Source of the DNA: an uncultured bacterium
GTDB taxonomy: Bacteria; Omnitrophota; Omnitrophia; Omnitrophales; JACQLI01
Length of the DNA: 64,000 nucleotides
Reading direction: 5' to 3'
Assembly: GCA_964372875.1 (NCBI GenBank)
Contig: CAYJTB010000001.1
Coordinates: 27,860 to 91,859 of the forward strand
The translations under genes and the position numbers were made by a program. Positions 21,301 to 27,300 of the stretch are shown one piece after another. Within the stretch, counting starts at the first letter, position 1, and each line of letters opens with the position of its first letter. The notes beneath the pieces were generated by a model that was given only the letters and a program-made list of their open reading frames with translations, had not been told where the DNA came from and did not search any database.

Positions 21301-24300
21301 TTGACCGTGAGCTCTCCGGGTTTTAAGCGCCAGACGCTTCGGCATGCGCTTCGGATGATGCAGGAAGCGCTTCAACTTACTTATTCTTTCCCCGGCACTT
21401 TGAAAGGAAATGACCCCCACCTTTCTTTTTATCACGATAAATTAATCGAAGAGACCCAACTTTTAAAAACATCGGATCAAACCGGAAAGTGGGCCCATGT
21501 CGAATTCGAAATCGCAAGCAGCCATTTTGAAATGCCGGATCATTGGGATCAGCCCGCCGAAAATTCGCTGCGTCAAAGAATTCAGGCGTTGCGCGAGGCA
21601 TTAGAAATTCCCTTTGTCCTTATGTTAAAAGCACCTTCCGGCGCCAAGGATCCTTATCACATCGAGCCGGTGGGAAACCTTCACCAGCGGCTTCCTTATT
21701 TTGTTCTCAAAGATGATTTCTTGAAAAATCCTCACGATCCGCGTTTTCCCTATTTTTCAAAAGGCGCTCAACTCAGTTTCGGACTTGAAGCACCCATGGA
21801 TTCGGCAAGATTGGAACAAGTTAGAAATATTCTGGTTGCAAGTCTTGAAGGCCGGATGTCGGCAGCTACCCTTAAGCGTGCCATTGAAGTGACGATGCAT
21901 CAGTGGCAAAGAGAAGACTCCTTCTTTTCCGAATCCCGCTCCGAGGCACGCCGTGTGCCTCGAACGCTTGCGGTGCACCCGGTGCGGTTGGCACCGGGTA
22001 CTCCGCTATACCCGGACCGGTCGGGTCCGGGTGTTGCGGTGCAGAGTCATTGGAACTCTGCCCGTTCAGAAGTTCGAACGGAGAAGTCAGAACGTCTAAC
22101 TCGTTCCAATGCAGGCGAATTACTCAAACCGCGCAGATACCTCAAGAATAAAATCTACGGAATTGGGCGCATTACCGCTGTGGAAGGAAAATTCGGGGGA
22201 AAAGATCCTCAAGGCTCCGTCGAGGTCGCTTTTTTAAATAAACACGGATTCGAAGAAACGAAAGAATTTTCCACCTGGTCACTTTTTCAATTGCCGGAGC
22301 AAAATCCCGAAGAAGCTTTCTTTTCCGTTACCAGGCAAGAAATCGAAGATTTCAAGAATCAAAAAAGACAAGGTCAAGCAGCTTATAAAGAAGAAATAGA
22401 TAAAAAACGCATAGCCCAACGGGAGGGCAGGCAATGGATGGAAGCACAAAGCCCCACATTTTCTCTCTACGATTCGCCTTTCAGCGCAAGAGCCGGAAGG
22501 CCCCTGGCCGCAGATTATAGAAAATTGATGCAAGGAATCCAAGACCGGGCACAGGGCGAGTATCACTTGGGCAGCGCCTCCATCGTGGAACGAAAAATTT
22601 TGTTTGAAATGCTGGGCACTCGCCTGATCCCTAAGACGAACCAATCGGAAACCACCCTTCGGATCAACTTAGGCCGGAGAAAAAAGGAATTCGCAGAGAA
22701 ATTGAAAACGATTTTAGATGAAACGGGCGGGCTAAGCGCCCGGGCCGTGAGCGAGGCGGAAGAGAAAATCATGTCTCCCAAAGATAAGTCCCGTGCGCTT
22801 TCAAGCGAATGGCTGAAATTCCGGGATCCTGTTACCGGTAAATTTGCGACCGAAAAAGATATCAAACGCTGGATCCAGAATGCCATTCCGATCGTTGAAA
22901 GAATCTTAGAATATGAAGTAAAACTTCTCAAATTAGAAAAACAAATTCAAATTCATCCGCGGCCTCTTGCGCGATCCGAAGTAAGGGCCGCTGAAAGTTC
23001 TCCCACAAAGAAGGTCGCATTTTTTAACCTCAGGACCGCGGACGATTCATCCATTGTTTTGCCGCAAAGGATGTCCTATCTTCCCGTCGAGCAGCGGTTG
23101 CCTGACTATAGCGCCTGGCGGATTCGAGTGGGAAGGGAATCGGGAAATTTGCACGCATTTTTGAGAGATGTCCTTGGCCCACGCTGGCATTGGAATGTCA
23201 AAGGAGAAACTAAGGCTTATTTTCTTTATAAAAGTCTCCCGAAGAAATTCAAACAATTTATTGGTAAACGCAAACCGCCGACAGGTTTTGATATGGAAGC
23301 GCTTGGACTTTTGGTGGTTAATCGAAGCGACATTTTTTACATTCCGATGGAAGAAACTGTGAATGAATCCGTGGTAACGGTGTTAGACAAAAATGACCGG
23401 GACGCGATCAATGAATTTATAAGCCATCATGCAATGATCCAAACGGTGCCGCAGAATATCCGGATCTTTCCTCCCGTTCGATATGAGAGCGTCAAGTTTG
23501 GATTGGGAGAGGATCCCGTGTCGAGTCCCAAGCCCGGCTCCATCGAAGTTGTTTATCACCCCAGGCTCATGGTCAATGATCTTGGCAAGGCAGATAAAGA
23601 AATTATTTTCGAAACCAGTTTCGACTTAACACAATTAAGGCCCCGGAAAAAGATTACGGCTGAACTTGAGGGAAGATTCTATCAAGAGTTAAAGTCCAGG
23701 CTGCGCAATACTTGGCAGATCCGCATAGGCAACCGGACCGTGGAAATGCCTCGGGCAAAAGATTTGCCGGCTAAAGTTCAAGACGTGGAAGAAATTTTGT
23801 TGCCGGGGAATAACCGTAAAACGGCGTCTTTACATTTCAATGATGCGGTTTCGTTCTATCTCGACGGAATTTTGATGCGCTCCAATGTGCCTGTACCCAA
23901 GGATATTCACGCCTGGATTTTTTGGAAAACACGGATTCGTTTTAACGATCAGGAAATCTCGGTTGAAACGACCGAAGGCAACAATGTATTAACTTATCGA
24001 ACAGATGAAACCGGTGAACATCTGCGGGTCAATGGCGAACCGACAGACAATAGTGTTTTGCAAAACATGATTCGTCAGATGGGCTCCGCTTTTTCAATCT
24101 TGGCCTTTCAGATGGCGCGCGATCCCGAACAAACGGATTATCTTCGCGAATCCGGCAAAGAAACGATTGATGATGAATTCGACCAATGGCTCGGCCGTTC
24201 TGAGGTGCGGGAAGAAGGACAGCCTGCACAAAATGGGAATGGCCACGCTATCCAGAAAAAGCAAAGAGGCCGCGGGTTCAGGACTAAAGAAGAAGCCTTG

Positions 24301-27300
24301 CAAGCCCTTGCCGAAAGACAGGCAAAAGGTCTTTCCAGTGATCCAAAATCCCTTCAAAGGCATTTAGCCGAAGGCGGCAACCCTACTTTGCTCACCTTCA
24401 TTTATCGATGGAATCAAAAGCACCCGGAAGAACCCATTGAAATGAAATTGTTGCCTACCCGAACCCACAAGTACGAATCCAAAGGAGAAATTATTGAAGC
24501 GCTGGAAAAAAGGCGGCTGGAAAAAGGAGAATCAGCCAATTATCGAATGCAATTACGCCTTCATATAGAAGAAGGCGGCGATCGTACATTGTATCAAGCG
24601 GTTCTGCGTTGGAATCATGATCATCCAGAGGATTTGATCAATCTTCCTTTGGATCCCCATGTGGCGCATGGTCAATTGGGAAAATACCAGACCAAACAAG
24701 ACGGCTTGAATACTTTGAGTGAAAGGAAAAAACAAGGTCTGGGAAATTCAACCAGCGATCTCAGGCAAACTAAATCGGATGGGGGGGATTGGCCTCTTCT
24801 TGTTTTTATTCGCCATTGGAATAAGAAGCATCCGAAGGATCGCATTGCGCTGGAGAATGCTGACCAAAACTTCAACCGCCTGAGTCCTGTTGCGGTCTGG
24901 CATTCCCAGACGCAGGATTTCAAGACGACCGATCAAAAAAGAACCGAATGGTGGCGGGCCTTGCAGGAAGAGGCGGATCACGAAGCTGGAAAAAGGCTGG
25001 TCGAGTCTTTTATTCCTTCAGTCAATGAGATTGCCCAAAGGTTAAGCGGGGGGAGAGATTCGCATTATGAAGCGGATTTAATCCAAAACGGAAATATGAT
25101 TGTCCTTGAGACGATCTATCCCGAGCGTAAAGAAGACCAGTGGAATCCGAGCCGCGGGGTTTCCATGACCGAATTTGTCGAGACCCGTTTAAAGAAAGAG
25201 ATGAGGCACCGGACATTGCAAGAGATACGTTCCAGCGGGAGATTTTCCATCGACGAGCCCTACCGTTTTTCCAAAGGCAGAGAAAAGGAATGGCAGGTTC
25301 CCAGTTATGACGCCCAACCGCAGGAAGTCCGAATTAACAACTTGGCTGATGAGAGGGACAAGCAATCGGGCCTTCCCGTGATTTTGTTTGAGGAAAAACA
25401 TCAAATCGCCCGCGAGATCGGAAAATGGTTAATCAAAAAAGGTTTTCTTAAACAGGTCAAGCAGGAAGGGATTCAGAACCTTGCCGTTTCAATGATCGGA
25501 AGCCTGGGAGTGCTCGGATCGGCAGTCAGAGATAAAAGCGATCTTAATTTGATGGTTGTTACCGACGCAAATGAGTCGCAGGCTGAAGCCCTCGCAGAAA
25601 AACTTGCGCAGTGGATCGGGGGCCGATATCACGAGCCGCAGGATTCGGAGCCTATCCGCATCTCCGTAGGAAAAGAAGGTGATTATGAGCAAGCCATAGC
25701 AGACGGAAACGGCTTCATTAGCTTACTTCAAAAACACAAGGTGGGCACAGACCCCATCAAAGGAATTGCAAGCGTTGAAGTGATTGGAATTCCCGACGAA
25801 GACAACTCGTTTTCCGAAGACTCTCTTACCCGGCAAAAAACGCGGGCGGCTTTTCACCTGGCCTTCCAAGATCCCCGGTTAGCCGAGCAGGCAATCAATG
25901 GGATCCTTGTCCTTGAAAATGCCAAGGGGGCCGCAGAGCGTCTTGCCCAAAAATTGCCGAGCGATCAGGAAAACCTTTTCGGTTATTATGAAAAATTTCT
26001 TGCCAAACAAGCCGCCAATCTTCGCAAGTTGCAGGAATCTTCCATTGACTCAAAAGCAAGGGCCGAGGTGCACCCGAATCCGACCGATTCGGGTACTCCT
26101 CAGTCCTCGCCCGATCAGGCGAGGGCCGAGGTGCGTTCTTCTTTGCCGGAGCAACGGGCGGAAAAGAAGTTAGAAACAAGAAAGTTGGAAATTGGAGCAG
26201 GAATCAGCGGGCTTAGCGGCCGCGTTGAAACATCTAATGGGCGTGTTTTTTCCGGAAGTGATCGATTGCCAATAAAGTCAACGAGATCGCCGCAAAAATC
26301 AGAATGGCAAGGACAGCCGTCATTTAGTCTTCCTCCTTTGAGGAGCTTGCCGCAAAAATCAAGCCCAAATAAAAGCATATCACGAGTCCTCCTAGAACGA
26401 CAAGCCGCCATTTCAGGGAGAGTTTTAGGAAAAGCTCTCCTCCCAGAACTCCTGCTAATAGGACCAAAATCACATGCTGAAACAACTTTGCCAGCCAGTC
26501 CCTCCGGGCCGTTGTCAGGAATATACTTTTCACAAAATAAAATATATAGCAATATCAATTCAGAGTTAAGCGATTTTTCCCGCTCCGATGGTTCGACAAG
26601 CTCACCATCGGTCCTGAGCAAGGCCGAAGGCCGCGTCGAACGCGCCGAGGTGCACCCGAATCCGACCGATTCGGGTACTCCTCCGCACTCACGCCCAACC
26701 GGCGTGAGTACTGAGGTGTCCCTGGCGGCGCCGCCAGGGGCTCCTCCGTCCTCGCCTGAACGGGCGAGGGCCGAGGTGCGGGCAAGCGTTGAAGAAATAA
26801 TCAGGAAGCAGATGCTTTCTGGAGATCTGAAGGCCTTTGAAAAGAATTTCGAATCTTACGACCGTGAAAAGGCCTTTGAACTTTTAAATAGCATTTCGAA
26901 AATTGCCAAGGAAATTTCAGAAAGGATCCGCAAAGGAGAAGAAGAACTGATGGTAGCTGCAAACAATGGCCAAAAAATGCAAGAAATCATTGACGCGGCT
27001 AAAATCTTGGAAAATTTCCCAAATGATAAACAAATACATGGTGTCCACCTATCAGCTATTATAAATTTACAGGAAATCTTCAATCTTACACCAAAAGCAT
27101 TGCCAAGATATCGCAATCTCTTAGAAGCTATTGTTAAACACGCGTCAAAAAAAGAACAACCTCACCAGGCAGCAGCTGAAATTATCGAGAGCTTTGAAGG
27201 AGAACAGCACGCTGATTCCCAACAAGATCAATTTCAAAGGAACGAAGCACTGGAATTTTTAACCCTAGATCTGGATGAAAAAGTTTTTAAAGAAACAGTA

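Follow-up and report, generated by a model that had tools for sequence, protein, structure and literature searches.

In-frame DNA palindromes locked to the module junctions of a mosaic giant gene in an Omnitrophota bacterium

We analyzed a 64-kb stretch of DNA (termed here the window) from an uncultured bacterium of the Omnitrophota lineage (GenBank assembly GCA_964372875.1, contig CAYJTB010000001.1, positions 27,860 to 91,859 of the forward strand; coordinates given below count from the first nucleotide of the window). The window is a part of the source genome, and all absences reported for it refer to this part. It contains a giant open reading frame (ORF) of 4467 aa (15316-28719, plus strand), inside which we found three GC-rich units built of several hairpins each, termed here U1, U2 and U3. 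We conclude with high confidence that they belong to a family of in-frame, structure-constrained DNA palindromes that are locked to the junctions of a mosaic giant gene. Every unit is nested in a five-residue motif, Arg-Ser/Ala-Glu-Val-Arg (R-[SA]-E-V-R), which separates unrelated modules of the giant ORF and which had been overlooked in the initial annotation of this DNA.

Hairpin units of the window

Within the 64 kb there are exactly three copies of the flank pair GGTGCACCCG...CGGGTACTCC (starting at 21972, 26067 and 26649), always on the plus strand and inside 15316-28719, and the remaining 50.6 kb of the window contain no copy of the hairpin units. Each unit is a chain of two to four perfect GC-rich stems of 7-10 bp, is in frame with the giant ORF and is free of stop codons. 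U1 (21937-22077, plus strand) leads from RSEAR through four hairpins (stems 21942-21962, 21977-21999, 22010-22032 and 22041-22061) to RSEVR, with a period of 126 nt. U2 (26059-26136, plus strand) consists of RAEVH, hairpin H1 (26072-26094), hairpin H4 (26105-26124) and RAEVR, with a period of 63 nt between the 12-nt direct repeats GGGCCGAGGTGC. U3 (26641-26781, plus strand) comprises RAEVH, the hairpins H1 (26654-26676), H2 (26687-26709), H3 (26719-26740) and H4 (26750-26769), and RAEVR, again with a period of 126 nt, and U2 equals U3 devoid of the two middle hairpins. The limits of a unit are the RSE(A/V)R/H codon block on the left and the next R(S/A)EVR block on the right, and its ends, GCCGAGGTGC on the 5' side and GGGCCGAGGTGCG on the 3' side, are direct repeats.

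The initial annotation had described three units with common flanks and perfect stems of 7-9 bp, a 40-nt block identical between two of the copies, and translation of all units in frame. These observations were confirmed, the identical block being 26062-26101 and 26644-26683 (GCCGAGGTGCACCCGAATCCGACCGATTCGGGTACTCCTC, 100% identity); the originally proposed limits (21972-22113, 26062-26130 and 26630-26790) had to be corrected to those given above, as 22113 and 26630 over- or undershoot. The RNA folding of each unit, which had been proposed as a check, gave z-scores from -3.5 to -7.9 and free energies (dG) from -42 to -98 kcal/mol on both strands (dG -72.3, z -6.4 for U1; dG -97.5, z -7.1 for U3), and only 0-1 of 200 shuffled sequences folded as well as the units. 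In a search of the window against Rfam 15 a tRNA alone reached the gathering score, and the best matches of the units were at the level of chance (mir-2208, E 0.1-1.4).

Conservation of pairing among related units

A scan of 185,579 species genomes with the first hairpin identified one true relative, contig L008, which is a single open frame from end to end and contains two four-hairpin units that share the H1-H2-H3-H4 architecture of U3, with compensated stems. A scan of metagenomes revealed four loci, all of them within giant open frames. Every real match in these two data sets lies in a homologous giant ORF, on the sense strand and in frame 0. In the giant ORFs, the sequence KCCGAGGTGCGG is present in 15 exact and 13 one-mismatch copies in sense frame 0, with no exact copy in the other frames or on the other strand, and signatures of the units were counted 27 times in the forward frame vs. 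0-3 times for the reverse frames, although two reverse frames are also stop-free. Among the viral contigs searched we found nothing except for one chance match in an exonuclease gene. The length of the units in the relatives varies from 30 to 201 nt, and all of them are open in frame.

Comparison of these units across seven related giant genes reveals a consistent pattern of compensation in the stems. In seven two-hairpin units 97% of the cells are paired; 9 pairs differ on both arms and no pair on a single arm, while sliding of the partners by 1-3 columns as a control reduces pairing to 35-50%; in ten distinct H1 hairpins 97% are paired as well, and 7 pairs are changed on both sides. For example, the U1 stem ACCCGGTGC/GCACCGGGT corresponds to ACCCGAATC/GATTCGGGT in U2 and U3, with four positions altered on both arms, and more distant copies have wholly different stems with perfect pairing kept (e.g. 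GCCAAACCC/GGGTTTGGC in L046, see below). The "compensatory loop changes" of the initial annotation did not survive this comparison: the loops simply differ (CGATCA vs. TGAACG), and the compensation resides in the stems. Each difference between stems is accompanied by a difference in the encoded peptide (HPNPTDSGTP, HPVRLAPGTP, HPARSGPGTP, HSAPTGPSTP, RQTLIGFGTP), and it is pairing, and not peptide, that the units conserve.

Other parts of the units hardly vary. The flanks and the linkers between the hairpins (GAGGTGCAC..., ACTCCTCAGTCCTCG, CGAGGGCCGAGGTGCG) are invariant between genomes, third codon positions included, and the base of H1 retains a pair of 1x1 mismatches, T.T and C.A, in nearly all copies. 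The hairpins are characterized by a GC-rich stem of 7-11 bp and a loop of the type CGACC or of its reverse complement GGTCG, and are chained via linkers in which GAGGTG and CTCCTC alternate; because of this alternation of loops and linkers the chain resembles palindromic units in alternating orientation, as in bacterial interspersed mosaic elements (BIMEs). The sense strand folds better in 8 of 20 units, i.e. there is no strand asymmetry, and we counted 0-1 one-sided G-U intermediates vs. 16-21 double changes, nearly all variation being from one Watson-Crick pair to another. The equal folding of both strands and the near absence of G-U intermediates favour a palindrome at the level of DNA over a structure of the sense RNA.

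The position of the units with respect to the motif is equally regular. The R-S/A codons on the left differ from site to site and AGG GCC on the right is constant, so that the unit behaves as an insert between codons 2 and 3 of the motif, and each unit regenerates an intact R-[SA]-E-V-R at its own 3' end. The window ORF has two syntenic orthologues, L043 (P0008, 6964 aa) from assembly GCA_974446295.1 and L046 (P0046, 2285 aa), and at the end of their conserved N-terminal module (N-module) the window has RSEVR only, while the orthologous junction of L043 reads RSEV-[66 nt, two-hairpin unit]-R. The modules that flank U1-U3 have no orthologues, and the comparison of sites with and without a unit is confined to this N-module junction. 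As units are present in ~6 of 145 sampled family members and the N-module junction of the window has none, they represent a dispensable, lineage-specific elaboration.

The junction motif

Without a hairpin, the pentapeptide marks nine more sites in the giant ORF, and is essentially absent from the rest of the six-frame translation of the window; the corresponding DNA, GARGTGCGG, occurs 8 times in the window vs. 0.85 expected, and 6 of the 8 copies are in the ORF frame. The sites are RSEVR at the end of the N-module (17116-17130, plus strand), two motifs internal to the region described below as island 1 (18070-18084 and 18097-18111), RSEVR directly before (18541-18555, plus strand) and RAEVR directly after (19492-19506, plus strand) a WD40 propeller, which comprises aa 1087-1375 and fits exactly between the junction motifs at 18541 and 19492 on the plus strand, RSEVR at 22972-22986 and at 24196-24210 (both plus strand), RSEIR at the start of the C-terminal module (27961-27975, plus strand), which is aligned with RSEVR in L043, and RSEVR within the C-terminal region (28081-28095, plus strand). 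Just upstream of the first of these motifs we also observed a perfect 24-nt palindrome, AATTCGGCCATCGATGGCCGAATT (17059-17082), which is translated in frame.

The motif is not a peculiarity of the window. A profile of the N-module matched 9273 cluster representatives, and the best 150 of these 9273 matches are mostly proteins of 1-7 thousand aa with the module at residues ~5-550. In 145 giant proteins that share the N-module, the pattern R[SA]ExR occurs 790 times vs. 26 expected, with a median spacing of 242 aa, and the eight commonest pentamers are RSEVR, RSELR, RAEVR, RSEAR, RSEMR, RSESR, RSETR and RSEIR. Since both the fourth residue and the codons of the motif vary, it is selected as a peptide. 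Hydrophobic segments resembling signal peptides (scored as 15-mers) are ~3-fold enriched just after the motif and ~3-fold depleted just before it. Thus, in L043 a lipoprotein-type signal directly follows the motif (RSEAR-KQGETVLLLGLLAGMIGGIGC-ASS, 6238-6330, aa 1080-1110 of P0008), and in the protein P0073 a Sec/lipoprotein-type signal peptide is found right after the motif at aa 747 (RSEVR-TPFARITKAIFFAAVMFMLMLPASVRA-Q). Because signal-like segments follow the motif, the modules behave like discrete proteins, and we infer from these sequence features that the giant ORF may encode a polyprotein or something similar. Fold and sequence searches gave no support for a protease role of the N-module or for the polyprotein idea. 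In the literature searched we found no description of the R-[SA]-E-x-R punctuation, the antisense islands or the hairpin units, and no relevant report of RSEVR or of Omnitrophota polyproteins. In the distant relatives L040 and L039 the N-module is a separate protein of 406 or 1033 aa, adjoining giant genes (9654 or 4552 aa) without RSEVR punctuation.

Antisense islands and exchangeable cassettes

The coding potential is positive in the sense frame of the giant ORF, with the exception of 16996-18540 and 26116-26640. In these regions lie two islands that are not coding in the ORF frame and in which the coding potential favours minus frames. Island 1 (17131-18540) carries minus-strand genes: a PIN_3 toxin (17259-17672; Pfam PIN_3 E=8e-18), a putative antitoxin ORF located upstream of it and overlapping with it (17653-17892) and a 67-aa membrane ORF (18258-18461), with a promoter-like site at 17946-17918, also on the minus strand. 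Island 2 (26137-26640) is flanked by U2 and U3 and has small minus-strand ORFs (69 aa at 26324-26533, and a short ORF downstream of it) and a minus-strand promoter-like site at 26569-26541. The giant frame nevertheless runs through both: island 1 has no stop in the ORF frame (471 codons; ~26 expected) vs. 17-35 stops in the other five frames, and island 2 has none (169 codons; ~9 expected) vs. 5-16 in four other frames, the codon-aligned antisense frame being stop-free as well. The PIN protein lacks tyrosine and glutamine, whose codons could give rise to stops in the sense frame that overlaps them. Each half of island 1 opens with a direct repeat of ~110 nt (17116-17225 and 18070-18180, 76-82% identical), which includes GTCAGAAGTCAGAG-like iterations with a period of 14 nt and has GGCGATTTTGG (peptide ...GDFG) at its end; in L008, too, a junction is followed by an element of this kind.

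Minus-strand genes are also found inside the open frame of L008 (DUF2283, DUF6722 and ParE-like). A ParE-like/antitoxin cassette is common to L008 and L046, with 81% nucleotide identity and unrelated flanks. The proteins encoded antisense are 85-87% identical between the two copies vs. 51% for the read-through of the giant frame; selection therefore acts on the antisense genes and does no more than keep the giant frame free of stops. The right edge of the shared cassette coincides exactly with a RAE[VI]R motif, and in L046 the cassette has a one-hairpin unit on its left and a two-hairpin unit on its right. This cassette, a single case, is the sole direct evidence for cassette mobility. L008 also has a sense module between two units (Ua and Ub) that differ by a single base.

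A mosaic gene at a fixed locus

The three syntenic giant ORFs (2285, 4467 and 6964 aa) have only the first and the last module in common. The N-module (15316-17115, plus strand) comprises a signal peptide or membrane anchor followed by an alpha/beta domain, and has 38-46% identity to the corresponding ends of L043 and L046; it matched no Pfam family, and its AlphaFold2 model (pLDDT, the predicted local distance difference test, 73) had no significant match in the PDB. The conserved C-terminal module (27883-28719, plus strand) shows 33-35% identity to the C-termini of L043 and L046. Between them, different giant ORFs possess interior modules such as PP2C, a complete 2-hydroxyacid dehydrogenase (2-Hacid_dh), HEAT, HTH_3, a poly(A)-polymerase head, PFK and phosphoglucomutase/phosphomannomutase (PGM/PMM, Pfam PGM_PMM), none of which has a start or stop codon of its own. 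The surroundings are stable: glycosyltransferase and PEGA genes lie upstream in the window, L043 and L046, and KsgA, GatC and GatA lie downstream in the window and L043 (GatA 80%, KsgA 71% identity), the contig of L046 ending just past the giant gene. The position of the giant gene is fixed, and its mosaic of modules changes fast.

Exact database look-ups of the giant protein and the PIN protein gave no match, and neither did a word-index protein search with the C-terminal 1500 aa and the U3 peptide. Since that index found 0-5 homologues for an N-module family in which HMMER detects >9000 clusters, its negative results are uninformative and do not indicate an orphan. Two Ga0247727 metagenome contigs, L044 and L045, contain further giant genes with the N-module at other loci, with phosphofructokinase and phosphoglucomutase domains, and central-metabolism enzymes may be represented there solely by modules of giant ORFs.

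Origin and possible role of the hairpin units

The explanation that we prefer, at about even odds, is that the units are maintained or propagated by virtue of their hairpin structure and that, as long same-phase direct repeats at module borders, they bring about the acquisition, loss and swapping of cassettes with the reading frame intact. According to this scenario a unit would insert after the S/A codon and ahead of the E codon of the R-[SA]-E-V-R motif, turning the upstream copy of the motif into RSEV-H, while its 3' ...AGG GCC would rebuild an intact RAEVR downstream. Being a multiple of 3 nt and stop-free, it would be translated as a neutral linker rich in Pro, Ser, Thr and Gly. All junctions are in one phase and the units add a near-identical direct repeat of 60-150 nt; because of this shared phase and these repeats, recombination between any two junctions keeps the reading frame. 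The units could then serve as portable sites or homology arms, by which modules, including self-expressed antisense toxin-antitoxin cassettes, would be gained, lost, duplicated or exchanged, and the hairpin would presumably be recognized on DNA by some enzyme or by the recombination or replication machinery, driving the exchange of cassettes. The initial annotation had suggested a selfish palindromic element or a recombination site. The former idea stands in so far as the units are structured palindromes within coding sequence, but they are not dispersed and occur in the sense orientation and frame 0 only; the latter is plausible in view of the exchangeable cassettes that have units at their borders.

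Several points weigh against this proposal. Pfam scans of the window ORFs revealed no recombinase or transposase in the 64 kb, and to our knowledge none has been described for these hairpin sites. Most junctions and ~139 of the 145 sampled relatives have no hairpin units, which are dispensable for the architecture of the gene, and island 1 is not flanked by units of the H1 type. Selection of the motif at the peptide level implies that its DNA is not primarily a recombination core. Exchange of cassettes could use the 12-15 nt of motif DNA or any other homology, with no function for the hairpins, and no excision product or strain-level polymorphism was directly observed.

A more far-reaching view, which is possible though doubtful, is that the system represents an in-frame integron, in which the N- and C-modules form a platform that captures phase-compatible cassettes, the polyprotein is resolved at R-[SA]-E-x-R, and the units are attC-like. 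The captured cassettes would be whole genes without start and stop codons, gathered at a fixed housekeeping locus into one polyprotein that is cut or otherwise resolved, and the array would be stabilized by antisense toxin-antitoxin cassettes evolved to be stop-free on their non-coding strand.

Among the alternatives, the units might be mRNA structures at the module boundaries of a message of 13-21 kb, causing ribosome pausing for co-translational folding or processing, blocking exonucleases or providing RNase processing sites, and for the antisense cassettes acting as terminators or insulators. Strong folds (-40 to -100 kcal/mol) with covariation, the location exactly at module boundaries and the Shine-Dalgarno-like GAGGTG within the motif are consistent with such a role, as is the minus strand of U2, where CTTGCTTTT comes after a GC hairpin, a short distance beyond the minus-strand ORFs of island 2. 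We nevertheless regard it as unlikely in view of the symmetric folding of the two strands and the rarity of G-U intermediates described above, the many junctions and family members without units, the lack of a match to any Rfam family and the lack of start-codon enrichment after the motif. Template switching at quasi-palindromes generates "compensatory" changes without selection, and the units could accordingly be a mutational by-product of template-switch or snap-back errors, with neither function nor mobility. The GC-rich DNA of the motif, CCGAGGTGCGG, which in many cases already forms part of a short inverted repeat (CCCGC...GCGGG), would act as the seed around which errors build and perfect palindromes, and only the in-frame, stop-free and motif-restoring products would survive selection on the giant protein. 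This agrees with the alternation of GAGGTG with its near-complement CTCCTC, as expected from iterated inverted duplication of the motif, with the presence of loops as CGACC and as the reverse complement GGTCG, with the stems of 5-7 bp that bare junctions already form around the motif, and with the fact that units are never found away from it. It is hard to reconcile, however, with the T.T and C.A mismatches at the base of H1, which are kept and not "corrected" in nearly all copies, and with the linker ACTCCTCAGTCCTCG and the H1-H2-H3-H4 order, which are kept between genomes whose N-modules are 38-46% identical. The conserved linker and hairpin order point to common descent with constraint, or to transfer, rather than to repeated local birth, and we do not expect the mutational explanation to hold.

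The view that the units are a duplicated protein linker rich in Pro, Ser and Gly, with incidental hairpins, is most improbable, even though the units are translated in frame, are P/S/T/G-rich, are placed between modules and are confined to this gene family. Where the stems vary, the peptide is not kept and the pairing is; the synonymous sites of the flanks are invariant; and a linker needs no palindromy. The initial annotation had named copies restricted to this gene and explained by simple tandem duplication of a linker as the outcome that would argue against its reading: the copies are indeed confined to the gene, yet a simply duplicated linker does not account for them, because the synonymous sites of the flanks are invariant despite the 38-46% identity of orthologous flanking modules.

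Other candidates were considered and rejected. The motif contains GTGCG, as in group II introns, but no Rfam intron model matched and the islands carry ordinary genes; the junctions lack the Cys/Ser...His-Asn boundaries of inteins; translational bypass, with GAG GTG as matching take-off and landing sites, is unneeded for units that are in frame and stop-free; and for internal initiation with GAGGTG as a Shine-Dalgarno sequence we found no enrichment of Met, Val or Leu 2-3 codons after the motif. A classical integron was rejected for lack of core sites and of IntI.

Comparison with known systems

The units work like Rickettsia palindromic element (RPE)-type repeats, like repetitive extragenic palindromic (REP) sequences and BIMEs, and like the attC sites of integrons, but belong to none of them, because each comparison fails in at least one defining respect: the dispersal of RPEs, the extragenic location of REP/BIME, and the core sites and IntI of attC. 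RPEs and the QMITEs of Coxiella are selfish repeats of palindromic sequence that have inserted in frame into protein-coding genes (PMC5896051). Like the units, they are palindromic, in frame, translated, a multiple of three in length and tolerated in loops or linkers, and orthologues with and without the insert exist. Unlike the units, they are scattered, in both orientations, over intergenic DNA and a large number of unrelated genes, whereas the units are short GC-rich chains confined to one gene family and to one orientation and frame, and nested in motif codons that they regenerate. A second palindromic family of the window, GTCATTGCGAGG ... CCTCGCAATGAC with an inner hairpin, is found at 15777-15855, 29728-29796, 34946-35038 and 36144-36299, in the N-module of the giant ORF, KsgA, TsaD and a LarB-like gene. 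Its copy in the N-module, which none of the six homologues has, is modelled by AlphaFold2 as disordered, and its copy in KsgA is absent from the orthologue in L043. The second family shows classic RPE-like behaviour, much more so than the hairpin units.

REP sequences and BIMEs of enterobacteria and pseudomonads share with the units short GC-rich imperfect palindromes with covarying stems, arranged in mosaic clusters with alternating orientation and conserved linkers, and they act as recombination hot spots. They differ in being extragenic and in having REP-associated tyrosine (RAYT) transposases and a GTAG motif on the 5' side, while all the units are translated inside ORFs; a Pfam scan of the ORFs in the 64 kb detected no Y1 transposase (RAYT), and GTAG is absent next to the stems. 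The attC sites of sedentary chromosomal integrons (e.g. the VCRs) resemble the units in being imperfect palindromes with conserved ends and unpaired bases and variable stems, located at cassette borders in a long, fast-turning-over array that includes self-expressed toxin-antitoxin cassettes, some of them inverted. The conserved T.T and C.A mismatches at the base of H1 below covarying upper stems are an attC-like trait, as is the occurrence of the same cassette in different contexts (one case, the ParE-like/antitoxin cassette of L008 and L046). The units contain no core sites RYYYAAC/GTTRRRY, lacking any GTTRRRY, and in the 64-kb window we saw no IntI or other tyrosine recombinase, no attI and no Pc platform. 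Unlike in attC, the ends of the units are direct and not inverted repeats, and one continuous open frame spans the entire array. Integron cassettes are promoterless ORFs, each with an attC behind it, whereas the modules of the giant gene have neither start nor stop codons. Yeast mitochondrial GC clusters and "byp" elements are likewise mobile GC-rich hairpins inserted in coding sequence, but translation bypasses the "byp" elements, which may be out of frame, while the units are in frame and bacterial.

The giant ORF itself, in which a series of unrelated domains comes after the N-module, corresponds to the "multi-enzyme metabolic" class of Omnitrophota giant proteins (10.64898/2026.06.07.730766), in which one ORF encodes many unrelated enzyme and scaffold domains (10.64898/2026.06.07.730766; 10.1101/2023.11.21.568195). 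As in the giant ORFs of the present family, these comprise HEAT, WD40, PGM/PMM, methyltransferase and other domains with many internal hydrophobic segments, and an N-terminal signal peptide or anchor. Neither of these two papers mentions the motif, cleavage, hairpins, palindromes, antisense genes or a polyprotein.

Implications

If the interpretation put forward here is correct, these palindromes would be selfish or recombinogenic elements locked to the codon block of one peptide motif, where each insertion, deletion or exchange leaves a frame of thousands of codons intact. It would account for the completely different interiors of orthologous giant genes, and would represent a bacterial analogue of phase-compatible exon shuffling. 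It would also disclose an undescribed grammar in giant "multi-enzyme" proteins, in which R-[SA]-E-x-R marks the modules, some of them with a signal peptide of their own, and antisense toxin-antitoxin genes are read straight through by the giant frame; the question of polyprotein vs. real megaprotein would become directly testable by proteomics. Should the doubtful idea of an in-frame integron prove true, it would constitute a new mode of gene organization and capture in bacteria, in a family that comprises >9000 sequence clusters.

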